This document shows positions 10,474 through 64,000 of a stretch of DNA of 64,000 bases, in pieces (within the stretch, counting starts at the first letter, position 1; every line of letters begins with the position of its first letter). A program made the translations under genes and the position numbers. The stretch is from Nannocystis pusilla. Its GTDB lineage: Bacteria; Myxococcota_A; Polyangia; Nannocystales; Nannocystaceae. Location: the NCBI RefSeq assembly GCF_049337375.1, contig NZ_JBMPIV010000015.1; one strand, 5' to 3'. The notes below the pieces were generated by a model. The model saw only the letters and a list, made by a program, of their open reading frames with translations. It was not told the DNA's origin and did no database searches.

Positions 10474-11526
10474 CTAGAACACCGACGCGGCAAAATTTCG
10501 CAGCGCCGCAAGAAAGCGCTCGTGCTGCTCGATGTGCGGCGAGTGTCCGCAGTCGGAGAACACCACCTCCTCGTAGCGTCCGCCCTTGCCGGCGTAGGCG
10601 TCGAGGACCGCGCGCATCTGCCCCACCATCGGCTGCGGCGGCGCGACCTCGTCGCCCGGCCAGCCCGGCACCGCGCCCAGCTTGCCGAGGAACCCGAAGT
10701 CGAACACCGACGTGTCGCTGACGATCTGGTCGTCGGCCCCGCGGATCCACAGCACCGGCGGCCGCGGATCGATGTCGGCGAACGGCGACAGGTCGACGTA
10801 CTTCGGCGAGATCGCGTTGTTCATGCCGCGCGTGCCGGGCGCGACTCCCGGCCAGTTCGCCGAGGCGGTCATGTCGCCGGGGTAGTGGTCGTCGCCGATC
10901 TTGGTCTTCACCACCGCCTCGACGAACGCGTCCTCGAGGGCCGGCTCGACCCGGAACGGCGGCTTGAAGTAGAAGGTGTTCATGACGTTGCGCGGCGACA
11001 CTTGGTTGTCGCCGCCGCGGTCGCCGGCCTTGATCAGGCGCGCGAACTCGGGGTTGGCAGTGCCGCCGCCCGAGCCGGCGAAGTCGGCGGTCGTCGCGGT
11101 GCCGCGGGCGTCGCGGGTGCCGCCGAAGCCGTACGGCGACATCGGGTTCTCGAGCACCAGCCCGGCGACATTGCTGGCGTGATCGATCGCGTACTGCATG
11201 ATCACGCCGCCGCCCGCCGACCAGCCGACGAACACGGCTGGCCGCGAGGACAGGTCGAGCGCGACGAGCAGCGCGTGCAGATCGTCGGCGAAGTCGCGCA
11301 CGCCGCGGGTCGCGTCGATCGGCGCCGGCTCAGTGTCGCCGAAGCCGCGCATGTCGGGCGCGATCACGCGGAAGCGATCGGAGAGCGCCAGCATCAGCGG
11401 CTCGAAGAACCCGCCGCTCGAGGCGTTGCCGTGGACGAGGACGACGAGCGGCGCCCCTGCCGGACCGGCGATGCGGGTGTGGACGCGGAGACGCGAGGTG
11501 GGGACGAGCTGCTGTTCGATCGGCAT
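10474..11526 (-). CDS. alpha/beta hydrolase
   Basis: ATG at 11526 (MPIEQQ...). VVLVHGN oxyanion region, GWSAGG nucleophile, C-terminal CGHSPHIE (His of triad). The upstream part of ORF 10474..11766 was rejected as an extension. Confidence 0.75.
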   Translation of the reverse strand: MPIEQQLVPTSRLRVHTRIAGPAGAPLVVLVHGNASSGGFFEPLMLALSDRFRVIAPDMRGFGDTEPAPIDATRGVRDFADDLHALLVALDLSSRPAVFVGWSAGGGVIMQYAIDHASNVAGLVLENPMSPYGFGGTRDARGTATTADFAGSGGGTANPEFARLIKAGDRGGDNQVSPRNVMNTFYFKPPFRVEPALEDAFVEAVVKTKIGDDHYPGDMTASANWPGVAPGTRGMNNAISPKYVDLSPFADIDPRPPVLWIRGADDQIVSDTSVFDFGFLGKLGAVPGWPGDEVAPPQPMVGQMRAVLDAYAGKGGRYEEVVFSDCGHSPHIEQHERFLAALRNFAASVF

Positions 11527-11953
11527 GTCGGCAGCAGGCAGAGTCGCAAATGACCCCGCACTTGTCGATGCGAGCGAGGATGCTCGATTTCGCGCCGAGG
11601 TGGTCACCTGGCGTAAGGGACAGGTCCCTCGGTGGTCAATGCCGGCGCGAGGCCCTCGCATCGCTCGGAGTCCGGGCGCGCAGGGCAGGGCAGGGCGCAC
11701 GCATCGCTCGGCGCTCTGCTGCCGCACCCGCCGCGCGGAGCCCTGGACGCGCAGGGCTGGGTGCACGGCTCATGCGGCGGAGACCGGCCTCCGGCGCCCT
11801 GCGCAGCAGCGGCACCACGCGGCCCGGTCTGCCCCTGCGTTTCGGGTCGGACCCGAGGATGCTCTGCTCGCCCGCTCGCGCCGCCGTAGCGTCGCCGCTC
11901 GCGCCGGCCGCTCGCCAGACCGAGGACGCTCCGCTCGTCCGCTCGCGTCGCCG

Positions 11954-42367: not shown

Positions 42368-42545
42368 TATGGTCGAAGAGACATGTCCGGGCGGTCATGC
42401 CTGACGTCCCCTGCGAGCGCGGCTGGAGCCGGCCTGCGGAGCTGACGGACATGATCGGACGGACATGCCCGAAGCGCCATGCTGCTTCGGGCATGTCTTC
42501 GAGGACATGCCCGAAGCGACAGGCTCTCAGCTACCGGCGGTGAAG
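42368..42545. repeat. Cluster of REP-like palindromes between convergent genes
   Basis: gaagagacatgtccgggcggtcatgcc...gacggacatgatcggacggacatgcccgaagcgccatgctgcttcgggcatgtcttcgaggacatgcccgaagcgacagg, which form several overlapping hairpins. Confidence 0.8.
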
Positions 42546-53541: not shown

Positions 53542-53600
53542 AGCGCATGTCCTGGAGAGCATGTCCGCGGGGACATGCTCTCCGGAGCATGGCCTCGAGA
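53538..53600. repeat. REP-like palindrome cluster between convergent genes
   Basis: cgcatgtcctggagagcatgtccgcggggacatgctctccggagcatggcctcgagagcatgctc. Lies between the DUF1963 stop (53541) and the MATE stop (53611). Confidence 0.8.
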
Positions 53601-53610
53601 GCATGCTCGA

Positions 53611-55026
53611 TCAGCCGGTCGCGCCGCGGCCGGTGATGTCGATGCGGCGCCAGGCGCCGGTGCGGAAGCGGAGCGCCATCGCCAGGGCCAGGAACACCAT
53701 GTACACGCACATGCTCCACATCGCCGCGGTCGCGCCGCCGTCCCAGACGAACACGGTCAGCCAGGCCAGGGGCAGCCAGATCACCCAGGCGAGCGCGATC
53801 CGGAGGATCAGCGGCCAGGCGGTGTCGCCGGCGGCGCGCAGCGCCTCGCTGAAGGTGATCACCGAGGCGTCGAGCAGCTGCCACACGGCGCTGATCGCCA
53901 GCAGCTGGGCGCCGAGGTGCACGACCTCGCTGGACGTCTCGAGCTCGTCGCGGGCGAAGATCGTCATCAGCGGCACCGGGATCGCGAAGTAGAGCAGCCC
54001 GACCAGGCCTTGCCACGCGGCGGCGACCGAGAAGGTGCGCGCCACGATCCGCGGCACGTGGTCGTGGCGGCCGGCGCCGATCGCCTGGCCGACCAGGACC
54101 GCGCCGGCCGAGCCGAGGCCGAAGGCGGGCATGAACGAGACCGAGTTGACGGCCACCACGGCCATCAGCGCCGCGACCGCGACGGTCCCGAGCTCGGCGA
54201 CCACGAGGTTGATGAAGATCAGGAAGGCCGCGAACTCGAGGAACCAGTTGAGGCCGTTCGGCAGGCCGAACCGCATCATCCGCGAGAACTCGCGCAGGTT
54301 GAGGCGGCCGTCCGAGCTGTCCGGAAGGTCAGGTACCGGGTGCTCGACGTGGCCGAGCGCCGCCGGGTCGATGGCCCGCCGGTCGCGCGCGCGCCAGAAG
54401 GCGTGGCAGCACACCGCGAAGCCGGCGACGCTGGCGAACACGCTGGCCCACGCGGCCCCCTGGACGCCGAGCGCGGGGGCGCCGAGGTTGCCGTAGATCA
54501 GGACCCAGTTGAGGCCGATGTTGACGACCATGGCGACCAGGCTGGCGCGCATCGACACCTGGGTGTCGCCGAGGCCGGCGAACCAGTTGCCGAGCGCCTC
54601 GGTGCCGACGACCACGCCGGTGCTGAGCATGCGGATCGCCATGTACTCGGCCATCACCTCGCGCACCGCCGGCTCGTGGCCGGTGAGCGACAGCAGCGGG
54701 CCTATCGCCGGGATGGCGGCGATGGTGGCGAGCATCGCCAGGGCGGACAGGCACAGGCCGTACCAGGCGTAGCGGCGCGCGCTGGCGAGGTCGCCCCGAC
54801 CGGCGAGCTGGGCCGCGTAGCTCTGGACGATGAACGTGATGCCCATCGGCAGCACGAGGATCCCCAGCGCGTTCATGGCGCCCGTGGTCGCGGCCGCGAG
54901 CGCGTCGTCGCCGAGCGGGGCGACCATGGCCGCGTCGCTGAAGCTGATCACCGACTGCGCCGAGCGTGCGAGCACGATCGGCCAGGCGAGGGTGATGAGC
55001 GCGCGGAGTCCGGGGACCGAGGCCAT
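53611..55026 (-). CDS. MATE-family multidrug/efflux transporter
   Basis: ATG 55026 (MASVPGLRALITLAWP). 12 TM helices and MATE repeats. The upstream in-frame region (to 55971) is Arg-rich and was rejected. Confidence 0.85.
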   Translation of the reverse strand: MASVPGLRALITLAWPIVLARSAQSVISFSDAAMVAPLGDDALAAATTGAMNALGILVLPMGITFIVQSYAAQLAGRGDLASARRYAWYGLCLSALAMLATIAAIPAIGPLLSLTGHEPAVREVMAEYMAIRMLSTGVVVGTEALGNWFAGLGDTQVSMRASLVAMVVNIGLNWVLIYGNLGAPALGVQGAAWASVFASVAGFAVCCHAFWRARDRRAIDPAALGHVEHPVPDLPDSSDGRLNLREFSRMMRFGLPNGLNWFLEFAAFLIFINLVVAELGTVAVAALMAVVAVNSVSFMPAFGLGSAGAVLVGQAIGAGRHDHVPRIVARTFSVAAAWQGLVGLLYFAIPVPLMTIFARDELETSSEVVHLGAQLLAISAVWQLLDASVITFSEALRAAGDTAWPLILRIALAWVIWLPLAWLTVFVWDGGATAAMWSMCVYMVFLALAMALRFRTGAWRRIDITGRGATG

Positions 55027-55070
55027 GGGCGCGGGAGGATACTCGCCCTTCGCCCGCGACGTCTCGCGCG

Positions 55071-56660
55071 TCAAGGCGCGCGCGTGAACTGTGCAGCCGC
55101 CGGATCGACGAGGCTGTCGACGCTCACGCGGCCGTTGCTGGCGAGGTGACGCAGCACCTGCCACACCGCCACCGGGTCGGCGCCGAGCGATTCGGCGAGC
55201 TCGCGCGCGGTCTTGCCTCCAGAGCCGCCCGTCAGCGCGGCGAGCACCGCGGCCTGCAGCGTGAGCACGCTCTTCGCCGCCTGCTTGCCGGCCTCGACGC
55301 CGGGCTGGTGGTAGGCGTTGACGTCGATGAGCTCGGCGTAGATCCCCACCGCGCGCTCGAACAGCGCGATCAAGGCGCCGACGGCGGCGGCGTCGACCTG
55401 GCGCAGGACGATCGTCGCGCTGGCCCGACCGCGCTCGGCGAGCGCGGCGCGGGTGCCCTGATAGAAGCCGTCGAGGCAGTCGCCCGAGCTCACCTGCGGC
55501 TCGACCTCGACCATGCCCGGGCCCGTGACCTGACCGTCGAGGTCGCGGAGCACCCGCACGAACACCGCGAAGAAGTTGTGCAGGCCGTCGCGCAGCTGCT
55601 GCACGTAGGCGTGCTGGTCGGTCGAGCCCTTGTTGCCGTAGACCGCGAGCCCCTGCCACACCTCGCGGCCCTGGCGGTCGAGCCGCTTGCCGAGCGACTC
55701 CATCACCAGCTGCTGCAGGTAGCGCGACAGCAGCGACAGGCGATCCTTGTATGGCAAAATGACCATGTCCCGAAGGCCATGTCCGGAGCCCTGCTGGTGC
55801 CACAACCAGGCGAGCAGGGCGGCCGGGTTGCGCCGCGCCGGCCGCACGCGGCCCCACTGGTCCATCGCCGCGGCGCCGCGCAGGAGGCCGCGCCAGTCGT
55901 GCCCGAGCAGCGCCGCCGGCAGCAGCCCGACCGGCGAGAGCACGCTGGTGCGCCCGCCGACCCAGTCCCACATCGGGAAGCGCGCCAGCCAGCCCTCGCG
56001 CTGCGCCAGTTCATCGAGCGCGCTGCCCGCGAGGGTGATGGCGATCGCCCGCTTGGGGAACTCGATCGCCTGCCGGGCGCAGGCGGCCCGCAGCTCGAGC
56101 ATGCCGTTGCGCGTCTCGACGGTGGAGCCCGACTTGGAGACGACGAGGAGCAAGGTCTGCGCGAGCGTACCTGTCTCTGCGAGCAGGTCGGCGATGCCGG
56201 CCGGGTCGGTGTTGTCGAGGACGCGCAGGCTGAAGCCGGGGCCGCTGTCGCGCGCGGTCAGGGCGGCCTCGAGCAGCTGCGGGCCGAGAGCGCTGCCGCC
56301 GATCCCGACGAGGATGGCGCCGGTGAACGGCCGACCGTCGTCGGCGAGGATCTGGCCGCCGCGCACGCCGTCGGCGAAGGCCTCGATCTGCCGCCAGCTG
56401 TCGTGGATGGCCTGGGCGATCGCGGGATCGGGGGCGCGCTCCGGGTCGCGCAACCAGTAGTGCCCGACCATGCGGCCCTCGTCGGCGTTGGCGACGGCGC
56501 CGCCCTCGATGCGGTGGAGGGCGTCCAGCGCAGCCTCGAGCCGCGGGGCGTTGGCGGTCAGCGCGGGCTCGTCGAGCTGGGCGTCGGCGAAGTCGAGCTC
56601 GATGTCGAGTTCGGCACGGTAAAGGCGCCAGGTGAGATAGTGGTCGAGTGCGTCGGCCAT
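55071..56660 (-). CDS. pgi: Glucose-6-phosphate isomerase
   Basis: ATG 56660 (MADALDHYLTW). PGI signatures: ILVGIGGSALGPQ, SKSGSTVET, the GGRTSVLSPVG-like motif (WVGGRTSVLSPVGLLP), and a C-terminal catalytic region. Confidence 0.9.
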   Translation of the reverse strand: MADALDHYLTWRLYRAELDIELDFADAQLDEPALTANAPRLEAALDALHRIEGGAVANADEGRMVGHYWLRDPERAPDPAIAQAIHDSWRQIEAFADGVRGGQILADDGRPFTGAILVGIGGSALGPQLLEAALTARDSGPGFSLRVLDNTDPAGIADLLAETGTLAQTLLLVVSKSGSTVETRNGMLELRAACARQAIEFPKRAIAITLAGSALDELAQREGWLARFPMWDWVGGRTSVLSPVGLLPAALLGHDWRGLLRGAAAMDQWGRVRPARRNPAALLAWLWHQQGSGHGLRDMVILPYKDRLSLLSRYLQQLVMESLGKRLDRQGREVWQGLAVYGNKGSTDQHAYVQQLRDGLHNFFAVFVRVLRDLDGQVTGPGMVEVEPQVSSGDCLDGFYQGTRAALAERGRASATIVLRQVDAAAVGALIALFERAVGIYAELIDVNAYHQPGVEAGKQAAKSVLTLQAAVLAALTGGSGGKTARELAESLGADPVAVWQVLRHLASNGRVSVDSLVDPAAAQFTRAP

Positions 56661-57134
56661 GTCGGCGCGCTTTATAGCAGCGTCGGCGCTCGCGGGGGGC
56701 CTGGGGACGCCAGGCCTCGGGCGGGCGGCCTTGCTTCGGAGGTTCGTTGCGGTTGCTGCGGGGTCTCGAGGGCTGGTTCGCGAACTGCCGAGGCCGCCTC
56801 GCGGGCGGTGGGGGACGCGGGCCGGCGCCCAGTCCTCGCCGATGCACCCTCCTTCGTCGGGCGCGTCTCGCTGCGGATGGGCGCCGGCCCGCGTCCCCGA
56901 CCGCTGCACGGCCTGCCTCGTGCGTGGCCCGAGCGCCGGTCGTCGGCTCCGGTGTCGGGAGGGCGCGAAGCGGGGAGGGCTCTCCGAGCGATGGACGGCC
57001 GGGGCCGGCCGCCCATCGCTCGGACCTCCTGGAGAGCTATCCGGCGCTCGTCGGTGCGCGGCGACGGGCGGCGCGGCGAACGTCTCGGGGCGGGCGAGGG
57101 CGGCGCGAGCGAAGGGCCGGCGGGAGGGCTGGGG

Positions 57135-57225
57135 AAACTACAGGACATGTCCTTCACGGCATGTTTTTGGGGACATGATGAAAAAGACATGGCGAAATGG
57201 GCATGTCCTTGCGGGCATACCCTCT
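57135..57225. repeat. REP-like palindrome cluster downstream of the UGPase gene
   Basis: caggacatgtccttcacggcatgtttttggggacatgatgaaaaagacatggcgaaatgggcatgtccttgcgggcatac. Confidence 0.75.
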
Positions 57226-57289
57226 CTGCGTGGGTGCTGCTCGGCTGGGCCGAGGATGAGGCCGGGTGCGCGCGGCCCTGGGCGGGGGC

Positions 57290-58414
57290 TCAGCCGGGAT
57301 CGAGGCCGACGCTGCGGACGATCTCGGTCATCGCGGGGCGGGCGGCGGCGAGGTCGTCGCGGGTCTTGATCGGGAGGAAGCGGGCGCGGTCGACCCGCAG
57401 GCAGGCGGTCCGGGCGAACTCGGTGATCTGGCCGATGAGCTGTTCGAACTGGATGACGGGCAGGTCGTCGCGGCCGGGCCACTCGACGGAGCGCTGGACG
57501 GGGAACCAGGTGAGCGGGTAGGGGCGCTCGAGGGCGGCCAGGGAGATCCACAGGGTGTTGGTGTTGAAGTGCGGGTACTGGGCCAGGGAGACGCCGGGGG
57601 GCAGGCGGAAGGACTCGATGATGGTGGCGCGGCCGTCGACCTCGGCGACGCAGCCGCCGGCGTCGTCGGGGGCGCGCGCGACGACCTCGACGCTGAGCTC
57701 GGCGCCGGCGTCGACTGCGTCGAGGTGGGCGCCGAGGACGGTGGGATCGAGGGAGGCGCCGAGGTTGTCGACGTTGGAGACGAGGAGGTGCTCGACGCCG
57801 CTGCGGCGCAGCTCGGCGACGACGCCGCTGTCGCGCACGCGCCGGAGGGTGTCGCCGTGGCCGGGCGCGGCGTAGACGGTGGTGTCGGGCAACCCGTCGG
57901 CACCGGGCAGGCTGACGAGCGGGGTGCCGTCCGGCAAGACGCGCGGCATCAAGGACTGCAAGAACTCGTGGCGGTCGTCGGCAGGGACGCCGGACCACCC
58001 GATGGTGGCGAGGTGATCGCCCGAGGCGGCCGCGGTGGCGAAGCTGTGCATGACGACGGCCGGGACGCCGGCCGCACGGACGCCGGCGAGCTTGACGGCC
58101 AGGAACGAGAGGTCAGGTCGATCGGGCAAGACGGGGACGACGCCCTTGACGACGCCGCCGAAGCGCGTGGCCATGCCGCCGTTCAAGATCAAGGCGGCGA
58201 CCTTGCGCGCGGCGAGGGCGTCCTGACCGCGCGCGCGCCAGCGGGGCCGGGCGTCGGCGCGGCCGAGGTCGAGCAGGACGTCGTCGCCGAGCGGCCGCGG
58301 CGGGGCGGTCAGCCGGGCGCGAGTAGGGCTGAGCTCGCCGCGGGCGAGGGCGCTGCGGAGCTCGTCGAAGAGGGCGGCGTCGAAGGCGATGTCGGCGACC
58401 GAAGGGCGGAGCAT
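57290..58414 (-). CDS. UTP--glucose-1-phosphate uridylyltransferase (UDPGP family)
   Basis: LNGGMATRFGG nucleotide-binding loop. VSNVDNLGA motif. Left-handed beta-helix C-terminus. Confidence 0.8.
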   Translation of the reverse strand: MLRPSVADIAFDAALFDELRSALARGELSPTRARLTAPPRPLGDDVLLDLGRADARPRWRARGQDALAARKVAALILNGGMATRFGGVVKGVVPVLPDRPDLSFLAVKLAGVRAAGVPAVVMHSFATAAASGDHLATIGWSGVPADDRHEFLQSLMPRVLPDGTPLVSLPGADGLPDTTVYAAPGHGDTLRRVRDSGVVAELRRSGVEHLLVSNVDNLGASLDPTVLGAHLDAVDAGAELSVEVVARAPDDAGGCVAEVDGRATIIESFRLPPGVSLAQYPHFNTNTLWISLAALERPYPLTWFPVQRSVEWPGRDDLPVIQFEQLIGQITEFARTACLRVDRARFLPIKTRDDLAAARPAMTEIVRSVGLDPG

Positions 58415-58715: not shown

Positions 58716-59810
58716 TCACAGGCGACCGACGGCGCGGGCCCACGCGATGGTGTGCTCGAGCCCTCGCGCGAGCGGCCACTGCGGGGCGTACTCGAGCTCG
58801 CGCACGGCCCGGCTGTCGTCGCACCACCAGCCCGGCGCCATGCTGCCGCGGGCCTTGTCGAGCGTCAGCGCGGGGGCCTTGCCGCGCAGGCGGCCGATCG
58901 CGTGGTTGATGCCGGCGACGGTCCACACCGCGGCCTGCGGCATCGGCAGCGCGATCGCCCGCCGGCCGAGCGCGGCGGCGGCGGCCCGGCCGAACTCGAC
59001 GACGGTGCTGCGCTGGCCGTCGGTCAAGTAGTAGATGCCGGCGCCGGCGGGGTGCGAGATGTCCTCGGGGACATGGTCGAAGGGGCTGCCTTGATCGGCG
59101 AGCACGTGCTCGCCGTCGCGGGGGATCGGGCGACCGCGAGCGCCGGCGCGGGCGATGCCCTCGACGAGATCGAGGGCGTGGATGAAGGACATCCACGCGG
59201 GGCGCAGGCCGGGCTGGGCGATGACCCCGAACTTGGCCGAGCGGATCATCTGCAACATGTCGAGGTCGCGCGGGCCGTAGACCGCGGGCGGACGCACGAT
59301 CACGGCCTCGACGTCGCCGGCGCGCGCGGCCGCGAAGACCAGCCGTTCGCCGTCGAGCTTGCTGTCGCCGTAGAGCGTGTAGCCGACGCGCGGGGCGTGG
59401 TGCTCGCGCCGCGCGACCTCCGGGTGCGAGGGGCCGGCGGCCATCAGCGACGACACGTAGACCAGCCGCCGCGGCCGTCGCGGGGCCTGGCGGATCGCCG
59501 CGAGCACGTTCGCCACGCCGGCCGCGTTGGCCCGCGCGAACTCGTCGCGCGTGAACGCGGCGGTCAGGCCGGCCACGTGATAGACGGTGTCGACGCCGTC
59601 GAACGCGGTCGCCATCGCGTCGACGTCGGACAGCGACGCGCGCACGAGCTCGGGCTGCGCGTCGGTCCGCGCGAGCGCGTCGGCGAGGTTGTCGAGGTTG
59701 GCGCTGGCGCGGACCATCGCCCGCACCGCGTCGCCGCCCGCGAGCAGACGATCGACGAGGTGACTGCCGATGAACCCGTTCGCGCCGGTGACGAGGACCT
59801 TCGTGCGCAC
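58716..59810 (-). CDS. NAD-dependent epimerase/dehydratase (3-beta-HSD/UDP-sugar epimerase family)
   Basis: VLVTGANGFIGSHLVDRL Rossmann motif. YxxxK (YGDSK). GTG start. Confidence 0.85.
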   Translation of the reverse strand: MRTKVLVTGANGFIGSHLVDRLLAGGDAVRAMVRASANLDNLADALARTDAQPELVRASLSDVDAMATAFDGVDTVYHVAGLTAAFTRDEFARANAAGVANVLAAIRQAPRRPRRLVYVSSLMAAGPSHPEVARREHHAPRVGYTLYGDSKLDGERLVFAAARAGDVEAVIVRPPAVYGPRDLDMLQMIRSAKFGVIAQPGLRPAWMSFIHALDLVEGIARAGARGRPIPRDGEHVLADQGSPFDHVPEDISHPAGAGIYYLTDGQRSTVVEFGRAAAAALGRRAIALPMPQAAVWTVAGINHAIGRLRGKAPALTLDKARGSMAPGWWCDDSRAVRELEYAPQWPLARGLEHTIAWARAVGRL

Positions 59811-60129
59811 GAAGCGGGGGATTACCTACCGCGACGCGTCGACGTCAAGGCTGTGACACAGGACCCGAGAGCTTCACCACGCGCCGCTTCGATCGCGGTC
59901 TCCTGTCCGCAGCATGCGTGACATACAGCCAGTGTGCGACGCATTTCGCAGTCCACACGCGAGCGCGAGCGCGACTCGGCCGTCGAGTTCGCTGCGGGGC
60001 GTGGAGATTGTTGCACTCGAGATTAACTACCAGCGGCCGATGCAGCCGCATGCGGCCGTATCGAGGCGCATCATTTTATGCATCGGTTTAAATAGTTCGC
60101 CGATAAGGCCAGCGCGTCGCAATCTGCAA

Positions 60130-60164
60130 CACGTGCAGCGAGGCGACAGCGCGCGCTGCACGTG
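60130..60164. promoter_or_regulatory. Perfect 11-bp inverted repeat CACGTGCAGCG-N13-CGCTGCACGTG in an AT-enriched promoter region: candidate operator of the lipid-synthesis operon
   Basis: Read directly from the sequence. Lies about 80-110 bp upstream of the alpha-oxoamine synthase start, inside the least GC-rich stretch of the window (tttaaatag, aaaatttcc). Confidence 0.45.
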
Positions 60165-60240
60165 GATCCGCATGCGCTGAGGAACAAAATTTCCGTGACA
60201 GCCGCGATACTTTCGCTGTAACTACGCCCCGGGCCCCGAC

Positions 60241-61515
60241 ATGCCGGGGAGTTCCGTGATGGGCCGCGAAGCCGAGCACAGTTTGGCCGACTTCTACTTC
60301 TCGGACAGCGACGATCCGCTCTGTCCGCCCGAGGGCTTCGTGCAGTGGGCCGAGGCCGGCTCCTGGGCGATGTCGATGTACGAGCCCCACATGTTGGGGG
60401 CCGTCGCACCGCGCATGGCGATCGAACGCGCCGGCGAACGCAGCGACGTCATCAACCTCAGCTCGTACAACTACCTCGGGCTCGCAACGCACCCGGAGGT
60501 CGTCGCGGCGGCGCAGGAGGCCCTGCGCACCTACGGCACCGGGGCCTGCGGATCGCCGCTGCTCTCGGGGCTGTCGGATCTGCACCGCGGGCTCGAGCAG
60601 GAGCTGGCGGCGTTCCTCGGCCAGGAGGACTGCATCCTCTTCAACAGCGGCTTCGCCGGGGGAATGGGCACGCTCGCCGGCGTGTTGCGCAAGGGCGACG
60701 TGGCCATCCTCGACGCCAAGACCCACCTGTGCTCGATCGACGGCGCCAAGCTGTCGCGCGCCAAGCTGGTGTTCTTCGACCACAATGACCCCGACTCGCT
60801 CGACCAGGCGCTGACCGACAGCGAGGGCGCGCGCCGGCTGGTGGTGGTCGAGGGCGTATACTCGATGGACGGCGACACGGCCGATCTGCCGAAGTTGCTG
60901 CCGGTGGCCGAGAAGCACGGCGTCGGCGTGCTGATCGACGAGGCCCACTCGATCCTCGTGTATGGCGCCAACGGCCGCGGCGTGGTCGAGCACTACGGCG
61001 CCGAGAAGTCGATCGGCCTGCAGTTCGCGACCTTCAGCAAGGCGTTCGCCGGCTGCGGCGGCTTCACCGTCGGGCCGCGCGCGCTGCTGCAGTACATGCG
61101 CTACTACATCAACGCCTACGGCTTCAGCTGCGCGCTGCCGCCGGCGGTGGTGGCCGGGCTCCGCAAGGCGCTCGAGGTGGCGACCCGCGACAACTCGCTG
61201 CGCGAGACGCTGTGGGCCAACACCCGCTACTTCCGCGAGAAGGCGCAGCAGATCGGCCTCGACCTCGGGCATGGCTCGAGTCAGGTGGTGCCGATCATGG
61301 TCGGATCGGATCGCCGCCGGCTGTATGAGTTGACGCGCACGCTCCATCGTCGCGGGCTGTTCCTCGCGCCGGTCGACTACCCCTCGGTGCCCGAGGACGG
61401 GCTGCGCTTCCGCGTCGCGATCACGGCCGCGCACACGCGCGCCGACCTCGACCGCGCGCTCGAGATCCTCGAGGACACGATCATCCGCGGCCGCGTCGAC
61501 GGGGCGGCCGAGTGA
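60241..61515 (+). CDS. Alpha-oxoamine synthase family PLP enzyme (serine palmitoyltransferase / 8-amino-7-oxononanoate synthase / KBL-like)
   Basis: PLP-lysine motif FSKAFAGCGGF. SYNYLGL. GVYSMDGD. The start may be ATG 60259, preceded by GGGGAG. 424 aa. Confidence 0.85.
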   Translation: MPGSSVMGREAEHSLADFYFSDSDDPLCPPEGFVQWAEAGSWAMSMYEPHMLGAVAPRMAIERAGERSDVINLSSYNYLGLATHPEVVAAAQEALRTYGTGACGSPLLSGLSDLHRGLEQELAAFLGQEDCILFNSGFAGGMGTLAGVLRKGDVAILDAKTHLCSIDGAKLSRAKLVFFDHNDPDSLDQALTDSEGARRLVVVEGVYSMDGDTADLPKLLPVAEKHGVGVLIDEAHSILVYGANGRGVVEHYGAEKSIGLQFATFSKAFAGCGGFTVGPRALLQYMRYYINAYGFSCALPPAVVAGLRKALEVATRDNSLRETLWANTRYFREKAQQIGLDLGHGSSQVVPIMVGSDRRRLYELTRTLHRRGLFLAPVDYPSVPEDGLRFRVAITAAHTRADLDRALEILEDTIIRGRVDGAAE

Positions 61516-61538
61516 GCGGGACAGGGTAGGGGGGCACG

Positions 61539-62549
61539 ATGAAGACGACGCTGGTGTTCATGTTCCCAGGGCAGAGCTCGCGCTACCCGGGGATGCTCGG
61601 CAAGCTGGCCCGGCTGCACCGCCGGGCCGCCGAGGTGCTGGCGCGCTGCAGCGACGTGCTCGGCCGCGACCTCGACGCGCACACCAGCGAGGACAACCCG
61701 ACGGCGTTCGATCGCAACGTCGACGTCCAGGTCGGCGTGTTCGTCGCCAACCACATGATGCTCAGCATCCTGCAGGCCGAGGGCGTCGACGCCGAGCTGT
61801 CGCTGGGGCTGTCGCTCGGCGAGTACAACCACCTCGTCCACATCGGCGCGCTCGAGCTGCCGGAGGCGCTGCGCCTGGTCCAGGCCCGCGGCGAGGCCTA
61901 CGACGCCGGCCCGCGCGGGATGATGGCCTCGGTCCAGCCGCTCGACCTCGAGACGCTCGAGGAGGTGGTCGAGCAGATCCGCGGCCAGGGCCTCGGGGTG
62001 CTCGAGATCGTCAACCTCAACTCGCCGAAGCAGCACGTGCTGTCGGGCGACGCCGCCGCGGTCGAGGCCGCGGTCGCGCTGCTGGAGGACGAGCACTACG
62101 TGGTGCCGACGATCATCGAGCGCCAGGTGCCGATGCACTCGTCGCTGTTCGAGCCGGTCGGCGCGGCCCTGCGCCCGCACCTGCAGCGCGCGCGCTTCAA
62201 GGCCCCGCGGCTGCCGTACCTGCCGAACCGCCGCGGCGAGTTCGTGCCGGCGCCGACCGCCGGCGAATTCGTCGACCTGCTCGAGGAGCACGTGCACACG
62301 CCGGTGCTGTGGCGGCGGTCGATCGACCGCGTCGCCGAGCGCCACCCGGGCGCGGTGTTCATCGAGGTCGGCCCGCGCCAGGTGCTGCACAACCTGCTCG
62401 ACCGCAAGTGGTCGTCGCGGCCGAAGTACGCCACCGACAACCGCGACGACGCCGCCGGGCACCTGGCCGGCGTGCTCGCGGCGCTGCGCCAGCACCTGCC
62501 GCCGACCCCGCGCAAGGACGTGGCCCAGGAGGCGTCGTGGACGAGCTGA
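61539..62549 (+). CDS. Acyltransferase, FabD-like (malonyl-CoA:ACP transacylase family)
   Basis: MFPGQSS N-terminus and a GLSLGEY active-site Ser motif. 336 aa. Confidence 0.8.
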   Translation: MKTTLVFMFPGQSSRYPGMLGKLARLHRRAAEVLARCSDVLGRDLDAHTSEDNPTAFDRNVDVQVGVFVANHMMLSILQAEGVDAELSLGLSLGEYNHLVHIGALELPEALRLVQARGEAYDAGPRGMMASVQPLDLETLEEVVEQIRGQGLGVLEIVNLNSPKQHVLSGDAAAVEAAVALLEDEHYVVPTIIERQVPMHSSLFEPVGAALRPHLQRARFKAPRLPYLPNRRGEFVPAPTAGEFVDLLEEHVHTPVLWRRSIDRVAERHPGAVFIEVGPRQVLHNLLDRKWSSRPKYATDNRDDAAGHLAGVLAALRQHLPPTPRKDVAQEASWTS

Positions 62550-63091
62550 GCGGCCTCGACGCGCTGATCAAGCAGCACCGCCGGCGGCCTGTGTTCGTGC
62601 CCGGCGAGGGCAGCACGCGAGTCGAGTTCGGCCGCGCCGCGATCGAGCGCATGCTGCCGCACCGCGACCCGTTCCTGTTCGTCGACGCGATCGACGCGGT
62701 CGAGCTGCCGCGCACGCCCGAGGACCCGGGCATGATCCGCGGCGTGCGGACCATCGACGCCGGCGACGCGGTGTTCACCGGCCACTTCCCCGGCGACCCG
62801 GTGTACCCGGGCGTGCTGCTGGTCGAGGCGATCGGGCAGCTCGGGATCTGTCTCTTGCACCTCATGGCCAAAGGGACAGCCAGCATCGACGCCGCGGACG
62901 CGCCGGCGCGCCTGCGGCTGCTCAAGGTCCACCACGCCCTGTTCCAGGGCGGCGTCCGCCCGGGCGACCGGCTGACGCTGCTCGCCCGCTCGCTCGAGCA
63001 CAGCGACTACGTCTCGACCTGCGTCGGCCAGGCCCTCCGCGGCGAGGAGGTCCAGGCCCTCGCGGTGTTCGAGGTCTACTTGATGGACTGA
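62537..63091 (+). CDS. FabZ/FabA-like 3-hydroxyacyl-ACP dehydratase (hotdog fold)
   Basis: LPHRDPFLFVD...FTGHFPGDPVYPGVLLVEAIGQ. GTG 62537 overlaps the upstream gene's 3' end. Confidence 0.7.
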   Translation: MDELSGLDALIKQHRRRPVFVPGEGSTRVEFGRAAIERMLPHRDPFLFVDAIDAVELPRTPEDPGMIRGVRTIDAGDAVFTGHFPGDPVYPGVLLVEAIGQLGICLLHLMAKGTASIDAADAPARLRLLKVHHALFQGGVRPGDRLTLLARSLEHSDYVSTCVGQALRGEEVQALAVFEVYLMD

Positions 63092-63111
63092 CTCCCCCCA
63101 GAAGAGCACGC

Positions 63112-64000
63112 ATGGTCTCATCGCAGGCACAATCGCCCCGCCGCGTGGTCATCACCGGCCTCGGCATCAACACGCCCCTGGGCGACGATCTCGACACCTT
63201 CTACGCCAACCTGGTCGCCGGCAAGTCGGCGATCACGCGCTGGAAGTGGCACAACAACGACGGCGTGTACTCGAAGATCGGCGGCGATCTGTCGGAGTAC
63301 GACGTCAAGGCCAAGCTGGCACGCCTGCGCGACGTGCTGCCGGCCGAGGTGCACAAGCGGGCCCGCCAGCTGTGCAACAAGGCGCCGTTCTCGACGTCGC
63401 TGTCGGTGCTGTGCGCGGCCGATGCGTGGCGCGACGCGGGCATGGTCGAGGTCGCGGACCCGACCCGCTGCGCCGTGCTGGTCGGCGGCCACAACCTCAA
63501 CGAGCGCTACTTCGCCGACAACTACGTCACCTTCCAGACGGAAGATCCCGACTACATCGACTCGATGGCGGCGCTGCACATGCTCGACACCGACCACGCC
63601 GGCTCGGTGAGCGAGATGCTCGGCTGGAAGGGCGCCTGCTACACGCTCGGGGGCGCGTGCGCCAGCGCGAACGTGGCCCTGCGCAACGCCATCGACGAGA
63701 TCCGCCACCACGACCACGACATGGCGATGGTGGTCGGCGCGGTGCTCGACTTCTCGCAGATGGGCGTGCACGCGATGGCGCTGCTCGGCGCCATCACCTT
63801 CGAGAGCTTCAACGACACGCCCGAGCTGGCCAGCCGGCCCTACGACTCGCGGCGCGAGGGCTTCGTGCCGTCGCACGGCGCCGGCGCGCTGGTGCTCGAG
63901 GAGCTCGGCCACGCGCTGAAGCGCGGCGCGACGATCTACGCCGAGGTGCTCGGCTGCACCTCGACCTCGGACGGCTGCCACCTGCCGTCGCCGTCGACCG
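63112..64000 (+). CDS. Beta-ketoacyl-ACP synthase (KAS I/II family), 5'-partial view; continues beyond window
   Basis: Self-translation gives MVSSQAQSPRRVVITGLGINTPLGDDLDTFYANLVAGKSAI ... active-site Cys in YTLGGACASANVAL. No stop before the window end. Confidence 0.85.
   Translation, partial: MVSSQAQSPRRVVITGLGINTPLGDDLDTFYANLVAGKSAITRWKWHNNDGVYSKIGGDLSEYDVKAKLARLRDVLPAEVHKRARQLCNKAPFSTSLSVLCAADAWRDAGMVEVADPTRCAVLVGGHNLNERYFADNYVTFQTEDPDYIDSMAALHMLDTDHAGSVSEMLGWKGACYTLGGACASANVALRNAIDEIRHHDHDMAMVVGAVLDFSQMGVHAMALLGAITFESFNDTPELASRPYDSRREGFVPSHGAGALVLEELGHALKRGATIYAEVLGCTSTSDGCHLPSPST

Follow-up and report, generated by a model that had tools for sequence, protein, structure and literature searches.

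A conserved type II synthase operon of Nannocystaceae with a beta-branching cassette and an alpha-oxoamine synthase: a putative source of branched sphingoid bases

What is made by the genes with which a 64,000-nucleotide stretch of the Nannocystis pusilla genome comes to its end? The stretch (assembly GCF_049337375.1, contig NZ_JBMPIV010000015.1), hereafter called the window, closes on four genes encoding an alpha-oxoamine synthase (AOS), an acyltransferase (AT), a dehydratase (DH) and a ketosynthase (KS). The original prediction for this locus had seen in them a dedicated pathway rather than housekeeping fatty-acid synthesis (FAS), had guessed at a sphingoid or amino-lipid product, and had singled out a perfect 11-bp inverted repeat upstream as a strong operator candidate. 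The reading favoured here, which we consider reasonably probable, is that these genes open an operon that would build a methyl-branched chain and join it to an amino acid, giving a branched sphingoid base for a ceramide-type lipid. The inverted repeat, by contrast with what had been proposed, is probably not the operator of this operon.

The operon was traced past the window end through contigs and species genomes found by means of AOS homologues. The window itself shares 97.9% identity with N. pusilla Na p29 across 10 kb. In every sufficiently long locus the genes follow the same order, namely AOS, AT, DH, KS, KR, HCS, ECH1, ECH2, ER-a, ER-b, and ACP, in which KR stands for ketoreductase, HCS for 3-hydroxy-3-methylglutaryl (HMG)-ACP synthase, ECH1 and ECH2 for two proteins of the enoyl-CoA hydratase family, ER-a and ER-b for two FabI-like reductases of the short-chain dehydrogenase/reductase (SDR) type, and ACP for acyl carrier protein. 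This 11-gene order is shared by six named Nannocystis species, Pseudenhygromyxa sp. WMMC2535, Nannocystaceae ST9, and several metagenome-assembled genomes, and the locus is syntenic and was found as a single copy in the genome of each named Nannocystis species recovered. Extension of the contig had been suggested as a check on the original prediction. The orthologous loci now provide the ACP, the KR, the reductases, and an HMG-synthase beta-branching cassette, which lies beyond the window end and alters the predicted product to a branched chain. All synthase activities of the operon are carried by separate polypeptides of 90–436 aa. We are highly confident that the window genes open a conserved 11-gene operon combining a dissociated (type II) fatty-acid/polyketide synthase, a full beta-branching cassette, and an AOS.

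The four genes that the window holds, all on the plus strand, carry the motifs that had been read from them, and Pfam and NCBIfam bear out the family of each. The first operon gene encodes the AOS, a pyridoxal phosphate (PLP)-dependent enzyme (60259–61515; Pfam Aminotran_1_2, E = 1.4e-48), whose PLP-binding lysine in TFSKAFAGCGGF is encoded at 61039–61041. The earliest in-frame ATG lies at 60241; the start at 60259 is preferred because a Shine-Dalgarno-like GGGGAG can be read on the same strand at 60246–60251, 7 nt before the ATG at 60259, because ATGGGCCGCGAA is invariant in 12 orthologous loci, and because homologues are 415–418 aa long. The second gene (61539–62549) encodes a FabD/PksC-like malonyl-CoA:ACP acyltransferase (Pfam Acyl_transf_1) with Ser92 in GLSLGEY, and is conserved in this position in all Nannocystaceae loci; an exact-sequence look-up of the AT protein gave no match. 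The third gene (62537–63091), the start of which overlaps the AT stop by 13 nt, encodes a FabZ/ApeI-like 3-hydroxyacyl-ACP dehydratase (Pfam FabA) with His83 in HFPGDP and a Glu in LVEAIGQ, and its orthologues match PF22818 (ApeI-like). The fourth gene, for a FabF-like ketosynthase (Pfam ketoacyl-synt), begins at 63112 and is cut by the window end at 64000, so that only its first 296 codons are present; these include Cys183 in GGACAS (63658–63660). In a full-length copy (L001, 6308–7615) the Cys, His, and His residues all align with those of FabF. With the triad complete, the KS is expected to be able to catalyse condensation. The window contains no ACP gene, as had been noticed before; the orthologous loci show the ACP to be the last gene of the operon.

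Could these genes simply be the housekeeping type II FAS of the organism? This identity was rejected, as no protein of the operon reaches the NCBIfam equivalog cut-off for FabD, FabZ, FabF, FabG, FabI, or AcpP. The AT scores 148 bits against TIGR00128 (fabD; cut-off 261), the DH 74–82 bits against the FabZ models, below cut-off (82 vs 113), the full-length KS 326 bits against FabF (cut-off 494), and the KR 243 bits against FabG (cut-off 298). The FabI-like reductases reach 52–72 bits against FabI/FabL (cut-off about 300), and the operon ACP 34 bits against the housekeeping ACP model (cut-off 70). The earlier suggestion of a dedicated pathway is thus upheld by the four window genes, which fall below the cut-offs for FabD, FabZ, FabF, and BioF, and by the conservation of the 11-gene operon.

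The models that these proteins do match point to polyketide-type chemistry. The top NCBIfam model for the KS is PRK07103 ('polyketide beta-ketoacyl:ACP synthase') and that for the ACP is PRK07117, a dedicated ACP. HCS, tested in the orthologous locus L002, scores 267 bits against CurD and 225 against PksG, compared with 177 against primary MvaS enzymes and 213 against M. xanthus MvaS, and it possesses the catalytic Glu, Cys, and His residues, with the motifs GTESSVD, HACYGG, and HVPF. ECH2 passes the cut-off of the PksI-type model PRK07110 (278 vs 215 bits), with PksI and CurF as its top matches among solved structures. ECH1 is a generic crotonase whose match to PksH is weak (59 bits). The reductive steps are represented by a FabG-like KR with a Y-x3-K motif and by ER-a and ER-b, which are paralogous SDRs that both carry a FabI-type Y-x6-K motif. 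Nannocystis has a gene for each reductase, and Pseudenhygromyxa encodes the two as a single 576-aa fusion (L017, 18110–19840), which suggests that ER-a and ER-b probably form one heteromeric enoyl reductase. In the Na p29 locus (L011, 12846–19667), the KS and KR are read as one 686-aa open reading frame (ORF) and several downstream genes have partial tblastn coverage; here assembly frameshift errors are more likely than real fusions.

The same set of enzymes lends itself to another reading, in which the operon is an ACP-based form of the myxobacterial, leucine-independent isovaleryl pathway that supplies iso-branched acyl-ACP for general lipids, the AOS being a mere side branch. HCS, ECH1, ECH2, and the reductase correspond chemically to MvaS, LiuC, AibA/B, and AibC, the match of HCS to M. 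xanthus MvaS is fairly good, and a full FAS elongation set is present. However, HCS is nearer to the ACP-dependent CurD and PksG than to MvaS, and the operon includes no thioesterase or acyltransferase able to hand the chain over to glycerolipids. Moreover, the AOS is the first gene and is kept in every version of the module, even in a distant one that has been rearranged (see below). A supply route for general lipids is accordingly judged improbable.

This brings the question to the AOS itself. Its membership in the AOS family is clear from the Aminotran_1_2 match and from the TFSK and DEAHS motifs, which align with those of the serine palmitoyltransferase (SPT) of S. multivorum. The nominally top-scoring NCBIfam model is that of BioF (TIGR00858), at 330.1 bits and a cut-off of 426.45, while Kbl reaches 303 bits (cut-off 460), ALAS 218 bits (cut-off 339), and CqsA (NF005526) 198.7 bits (cut-off 428). 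Against solved structures, the best match is the S. multivorum SPT (3A2B, 245.6 bits), with the Thermus AOS (ThAOS, 244.9 bits), E. coli Kbl (224.6 bits), S. paucimobilis SPT (213 bits), CFAT (201–206 bits), and E. coli BioF (195 bits) behind it, and CqsA as the weakest (104 bits). A neighbour-joining tree was computed on 394 columns with 100 bootstraps and included E. coli BioF, Kbl, and Spt together with NCBIfam-labelled representatives. In this tree, which follows a check proposed with the original prediction, the AOS does not show the firm grouping with BioF that would have spoken against that prediction. It falls into a clade of its own with 99% bootstrap, apart from BioF and Kbl, while E. 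coli BioF groups elsewhere with the proteins that pass the BioF model. The affinity of this clade to SPT-like sequences is weak (53% and 19% support).

A biotin pathway, in which the AOS would be BioF and the cluster would make pimeloyl-ACP and 8-amino-7-oxononanoate, has in its favour the nominal rank of TIGR00858 and the fact that some database records call the homologues '8-amino-7-oxononanoate synthase'. Against it stand the sub-cut-off score, the placement in the tree, and the absence of bioA, bioB, bioD, bioC, and bioH from every locus examined; nor would a beta-branching cassette have any role in pimelate synthesis. The chance that this pathway is the right one is close to nil, and we regard it as effectively refuted. 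The database names 'BioF' and 'glycine C-acetyltransferase' carried by these AOS genes are wrong. The window AOS, then, is not BioF, and its identity as an SPT is unproven from sequence alone.

The clade to which this AOS belongs was explored in a search of 1.84 billion representative proteins. Its members share an extra N-terminal stretch of ~60 residues (SLADFYF..D.DDPL.PP) that is confined to the clade. They include a lone AOS (P0250) and one encoded as an ACP-AOS pair (P0253), from which it follows that the clade is wider than the HMG-synthase module. Many orthologues from outside Nannocystis are longer, at 513–534 aa (P0080–P0112; Pseudenhygromyxa L017, about 11150–11548). What appeared in these to be an N-terminal extension is in fact a C-terminal tail of ~100 residues, charged, rich in Ala and Ser, and lacking any recognised domain.

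The neighbourhood of the operon also bears on its product. Divergent from it, on the minus strand, lies a gene (58716–59810) for an extended SDR of the epimerase/3-beta-hydroxysteroid dehydrogenase type (Pfam Epimerase and 3Beta_HSD), which is proposed to be a CerR-like 3-keto reductase and which adjoins the operon wherever the upstream part of a Nannocystaceae locus reaches far enough to show it. For comparison, the sphingolipid locus of E. coli BL21(DE3) was used, which reads yghO / AasR / epi / AcpR / spt (ECD_02850–02854). There, the role of N-acyltransferase (bCerS) is given to yghO (aca) and that of reductase (CerR) to ECD_02852 (epi), with AasR as ECD_02851, AcpR as ECD_02853, and Spt as ECD_02854 (PMC9386255). 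Compared over its full length, the window SDR has 27.7% identity to ECD_02852, the CerR orthologue (79 bits by phmmer).

A second partner is found in Pseudenhygromyxa (L017) and ST9 (L019), where a protein of ~390 aa with a marginal GCN5-related N-acetyltransferase (GNAT) signature is encoded between the SDR gene and the operon. This gene abuts or overlaps the SDR gene in both loci and is divergent from the AOS operon, so that the two look like a translationally coupled, two-gene operon. The Nannocystaceae GNAT proteins are 32–33% identical over their full length to YghO, the bCerS orthologue (E = 1e-66 to 1e-74). In at least 10 cases the longest contigs of AOS and GNAT homologues are of equal size, some of them 5–10 kb, which suggests that the two are often on one contig. 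In Nannocystis, the GNAT orthologue (60–63% identical) is located elsewhere and is followed by an ACP gene and then by a gene for a 589-aa AMP-ligase, which in N. exedens is 37.5% identical to AasR (E = 1e-115). The N. exedens locus (L020, 8001–11278) presents the bCerS-family GNAT, the ACP, and the AasR-like acyl-AMP ligase in a row; it resembles the ceramide set of Caulobacter and E. coli BL21, with no spt adjoining.

The setting expected of an SPT-type enzyme is seen in the adjacent gene for a CerR-like SDR, in the bCerS-family GNAT gene coupled to it (L017 and L019), and in the ACP gene within the operon. Together, the homologies of the GNAT, the AasR-like ligase, and the SDR place the AOS operon among partners of a ceramide pathway. 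The earlier guess at a sphingoid or amino-lipid product gains contextual support from these CerR, bCerS, and AasR homologues.

A pathway can be proposed on this basis, its gene content and homologies being observed and its chemistry conjectural. The FabD-like AT would put malonate on the operon's own ACP, and the FabF-like KS would prime and elongate the chain. HCS, ECH1, and ECH2 would then turn one beta-ketoacyl-ACP into a methyl-branched enoyl-ACP. Branching at acetoacetyl-ACP would give an isovaleryl-type (iso) terminus, and branching later in elongation a mid-chain methyl branch. The reductive cycles would be finished by the KR, the DH, and the two paralogous FabI-like reductases. Next, the AOS would release a 3-keto long-chain base by condensing the completed acyl-ACP with an amino acid, serine being the most likely one. 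Finally, the CerR-like SDR and the bCerS-family N-acyltransferase would convert this base into a ceramide-type lipid.

Several observations weigh against this proposal. The AOS falls below the cut-offs of the curated SPT equivalog models (NF047600, NF047599, and NF047603), with 298 vs 640, 288 vs 500, and 238 vs 670 bits. The match of the SDR to CerR is barely above that of the same SDR to its best PDB chain, an unrelated extended SDR (73 bits). The cassette also departs from the canonical form. In canonical beta-branching cassettes, the active-site Cys of the decarboxylating KS is replaced by Ser, and the acceptor ACP has a Trp, the 'branching flag', after the phosphopantetheine serine. The KS of the operon retains its cysteine and is not of the Cys-to-Ser decarboxylase type, there is one ACP only, and this ACP reads GANSLDIVEVVSCSMRELK, without Trp, in all six orthologues examined. 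In addition, no bCerS or CerR homologue occurs within 10 kb of the distant version of the module described next, and the literature searched held no paper linking Nannocystis to sphingolipids or describing this cluster.

The distant version of the module belongs to an organism of 51% GC, with an AOS 46–47% identical to those of the operon. Its gene order is KS-KR-HCS-ECH1-ECH2-ER-ACP-AOS-DH; it has no AT gene and a single reductase. The parts have been kept through this rearrangement, which argues for a joint function of the AOS and the branching synthase. A metagenome scan with the distant AOS P0244 returned only one further long contig with the module, L030. In L030 (6858–8114), genes for DUF6978 and DUF1828 proteins are inserted between ECH1 and ECH2, and the downstream side carries a PIN-domain gene and a second KS gene.

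The lack of ceramide genes near the distant module fits a different product, a small diffusible molecule. Under this alternative, the cassette would make isovaleryl- or dimethylacrylyl-ACP, which the AOS would condense directly with a small amino acid to yield a short branched alpha-aminoketone or alpha-hydroxyketone signal (CqsA/LqsA-like) or an alkylpyrazine precursor. AOS enzymes are known to produce such signals, the cassette acting on acetoacetyl-ACP alone would give a C5 branched acyl-ACP, and Nannocystis emits alkylpyrazines. Yet CqsA is the most distant AOS family both in the PDB search and by its NCBIfam score (199 vs 428 bits), and a CqsA-type AOS is for these reasons judged unlikely. 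The full reductive set of KR, DH, and FabI-like ER would be unneeded for a C5 product, and in Nannocystaceae the operon is physically coupled with genes for bCerS-family and CerR-like proteins. A syntenic single locus in each named Nannocystis species also looks more like core lipid than like accessory signal. We consider a small diffusible product unlikely and retain the branched sphingoid base as the better explanation of the locus.

A wider claim can be put forward more tentatively, and we would not give it even odds. It is that Nannocystaceae and at least one unrelated lineage of 51% GC use a third, undescribed route to sphingoid bases, in which a type II synthase with an HMG-synthase cassette would make a branched acyl-ACP from malonyl-CoA alone, an AOS of a new clade would join it to serine, and bCerS- and CerR-like enzymes would finish a branched ceramide, possibly a glycosylated one.

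The last point is raised by sugar-nucleotide genes nearby, which may hint at a glycosylated head group, the association being loose. The nearest of these in the window encodes a UDPGP-family sugar-1-phosphate uridylyltransferase (57290–58414, minus strand; Pfam UDPGP on the matching L001 gene), a possible supplier of a sugar head group, though the link is weak. In the Nannocystis-type loci, the gene is kept beside the SDR gene (L006) or one gene away from it (L002 and L004); it is not found there in L017 and L019. It is part of a minus-strand flank of the operon (53611–58414) that also comprises genes for a MatE-family transporter and a glucose-6-phosphate isomerase. On the other side of the operon, the ACP gene is followed in L004 (19642–21248) by genes for a GT2 glycosyltransferase and a UDP-glucose dehydrogenase, and in L006 (20097–21248) by genes for an NTP-transferase and a DegT aminotransferase.

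How might such an operon be controlled? The 448-bp region between the divergent SDR gene and the AOS gene had been described as AT-enriched, and its GC content is indeed 52–55% at 60000–60150 against a window mean of 72%. The inverted repeat within it is also present exactly as it had been reported, with perfectly complementary 11-bp arms (CACGTGCAGCG at 60130–60140 and CGCTGCACGTG at 60154–60164) on either side of a 13-nt spacer (60130–60164 overall). A perfect palindrome in a GC-rich genome is, however, weak evidence for an operator unless it is checked in related genomes. In the window, seven distinct inverted repeats have perfect arms of 11 bp or more and a spacer no longer than 20 nt. A first-order Markov simulation gives ~3 such 11-mer repeats per 64 kb, with at least one in 85% of simulated windows, which means that the repeat is not exceptional for 64 kb at 72% GC. 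The chance of finding one in a single given 448-bp intergenic region is ~2%, a figure that refers to a region chosen after the fact.

Conservation was assessed from an upstream alignment and a substitution count of eight Nannocystis sequences, including the window, and four more distant orthologues. The dyad is perfect in the window only; the other seven Nannocystis sequences pair at 8–10 of the 11 positions, and no compensatory change is seen among the Nannocystis sequences. Within the intergenic region, variation is highest in the left arm, with 7 of 11 columns varying against a background of 22%, compared with 1 of 11 in the right arm. By parsimony, a perfect dyad may be ancestral for the genus and have decayed independently in most lineages. 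The entire repeat segment is missing from L002, the AOS of which is 90% identical to that of the window, and it is unalignable in the orthologues with ~80% identity.

These data bear on whether the repeat could be a genuine operator of a dimeric regulator, or a regulatory RNA hairpin, for the operon or the SDR gene, at least within Nannocystis. Such a role would suit its perfection and its position in a divergent intergenic region, its possible ancestry in the genus, the conservation of the right arm, and the stability of the hairpin that it would form as RNA (−28 kcal/mol, z = −2.8). However, seven of the eight Nannocystis sequences have lost one to three pairs without compensation, the left arm varies more than any other part of the region, and neither L002 nor any of the more distant orthologous promoters has the segment. 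The hairpin has no T-run and received no terminator call, a Rfam scan of the intergenic region gave no match at E up to 1, and a scan of that region for consensus promoters and terminators found nothing. Half-sites are not enriched in the window (8 matches with up to one mismatch vs 5.6 expected), and apart from the orthologous copy itself, neither the 64-kb window nor the ~21 kb surrounding each orthologous locus yielded another. Add to this that similar perfect repeats are expected by chance at this window size and GC content, and that the repeat lies about 30–65 nt upstream of the best-conserved element of the region, without overlap. A genuine regulatory role for the repeat is therefore rather unlikely in our estimate. 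The original prediction had named lack of conservation upstream of orthologous operons as a ground for refutation, and by that standard its strong operator candidate is not supported.

That best-conserved element is a 37-mer, TTTCCGTGACAGCCGCGATACTTTCGCTGTAACTACG (60190–60226, plus strand), about 32–69 nt before the AOS start codon. It is invariant in all eight Nannocystis sequences, differs by no more than five mismatches in orthologues of ~80% protein identity, and is far better conserved than the inverted repeat. Nannocystaceae ST9 (L019) keeps half of this element (TTTCCGTGACA), and L017 and L018 lack it. The 37-mer can be read as GTGACA-N17-GTAACT, a promoter reading that is weakened by its failure in a strict sigma-70 consensus scan. 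It has no second copy in the window and none upstream of the bCerS-ACP-AasR locus of N. exedens. Judged by its conservation, the 37-mer is taken as a likely core promoter or regulator site, and as a better candidate than the repeat.

Other non-coding elements were noticed in passing. Two AT-rich blocks, GAGATTGTTGCACTCGAGATTAACTA and GGTTTAAATA (60005–60030 and 60086–60096), are conserved between Nannocystis species and L002 and may serve the divergent SDR gene as promoter or regulatory elements. An 8-bp palindrome, CGCATGCG, occurs at 60047–60054 and again at 60169–60176, 122 nt apart, with both copies conserved within the genus; it is not enriched across the window (5 matches vs 6 expected). 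Further away, the window has perfect hairpin repeats around GGACATG / CATGTCC at 42447–42517 and 53547–53590. The former region contains an arm, reverse-arm, arm triple with 14-bp arms (GACATGCCCGAAGC, 42462–42517), and the latter a hairpin with 13-bp arms and a 4-nt loop (53554–53583); these hairpins look like a repetitive-palindrome or terminator family. Finally, a unit of ~32 nt (CCCACAGTTGAAGAGTCGGCCCTGAAGGGCCT) is repeated in three to four tandem copies at a contig end (L018, 1–120), upstream of a distant orthologous operon.

If the proposed pathway is true, it would offer the first case of a beta-branching cassette that works in membrane-lipid synthesis and apart from a polyketide megasynthase, and an HMG-synthase cassette would be shown to act on a free-standing ACP without a megasynthase. 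Of the two bacterial sphingolipid routes described, one relies on the canonical Spt, which is supplied by the fatty-acid pool, and the other, known since 2025, pairs an iterative type I polyketide synthase (PKS) with an AOS. A dissociated synthase that adds an isoprenoid-like branch would be a third solution and would imply a broader range of sphingoid-base structures. The proposal predicts branched amino-lipids or ceramides in Nannocystaceae, soil myxobacteria for which the literature searched holds no sphingolipid reports. With its 11 genes, the system is also compact and of a size that can be expressed heterologously, for the study and engineering of beta-branching.

Among known systems, the operon calls to mind the Spt/bCerS/CerR pathway, with AcpR and AasR, of E. 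coli BL21 and Caulobacter crescentus, in the latter of which the ceramide pathway has been described (PMC11087976). The two have in common an AOS that condenses an acyl thioester, here probably an acyl-ACP, with an amino acid, as well as a bCerS-family GNAT, a CerR-like extended SDR, and an AasR-like acyl-AMP ligase with its own ACP, clustered or coupled with the AOS. They differ in that the AOS studied here is not Spt by curated models and belongs to a separate clade. Moreover, the chain is apparently built in situ by nine extra enzymes, including the cassette, instead of being drawn from the fatty-acid pool by AasR and AcpR.

Another point of comparison, and a precedent for the proposed reading, is PfSgaAB(C) of P. 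fluorescens MYb115, in which an iterative type I PKS and an AOS make sphingolipids (PMC12134224). As is proposed for the present operon, a dedicated polyketide/fatty-acid synthase feeds an AOS, and a reductase gene lies alongside; the Sga AOS has SPT activity and is independent of canonical Spt. Whereas SgaA is a single multidomain type I PKS, the operon consists throughout of discrete type II proteins, and no HMG-synthase cassette has been described for Sga. Membership in an SgaAB-type cluster was rejected, as no multidomain type I PKS stands beside the AOS.

With BioF, Kbl, and CqsA, the AOS has in common the fold and the catalytic residues (the TFSK lysine and DEAHS), and it scores 195–225 bits against the E. 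coli BioF and Kbl. It is set apart from them by its scores below the cut-offs, its clade, its additional N-terminal stretch, and its gene context.

The chain-building part of the operon finds its closest counterparts in the cassettes of bacillaene (PksC/AcpK/PksF/PksG/PksH/PksI) and curacin (CurB-F), which likewise comprise an AT, a free-standing ACP, a KS, an HMG-ACP synthase, an ECH1 dehydratase, and an ECH2 decarboxylase. Unlike these, the operon has no megasynthase partner, its KS keeps the Cys, its single ACP is without the Trp flag, and release would be achieved by the AOS. Finally, the same logic of HMG-type condensation, dehydration, decarboxylation, and reduction is followed within the same phylum by the myxobacterial alternative isovaleryl-CoA pathway (MvaS, LiuC, AibA/B, and AibC), a logic that could yield an iso-branched C5 starter. 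That pathway uses CoA thioesters and unrelated decarboxylase subunits, whereas the operon encodes enzymes of the ACP-dependent PKS type in linkage with an AOS.

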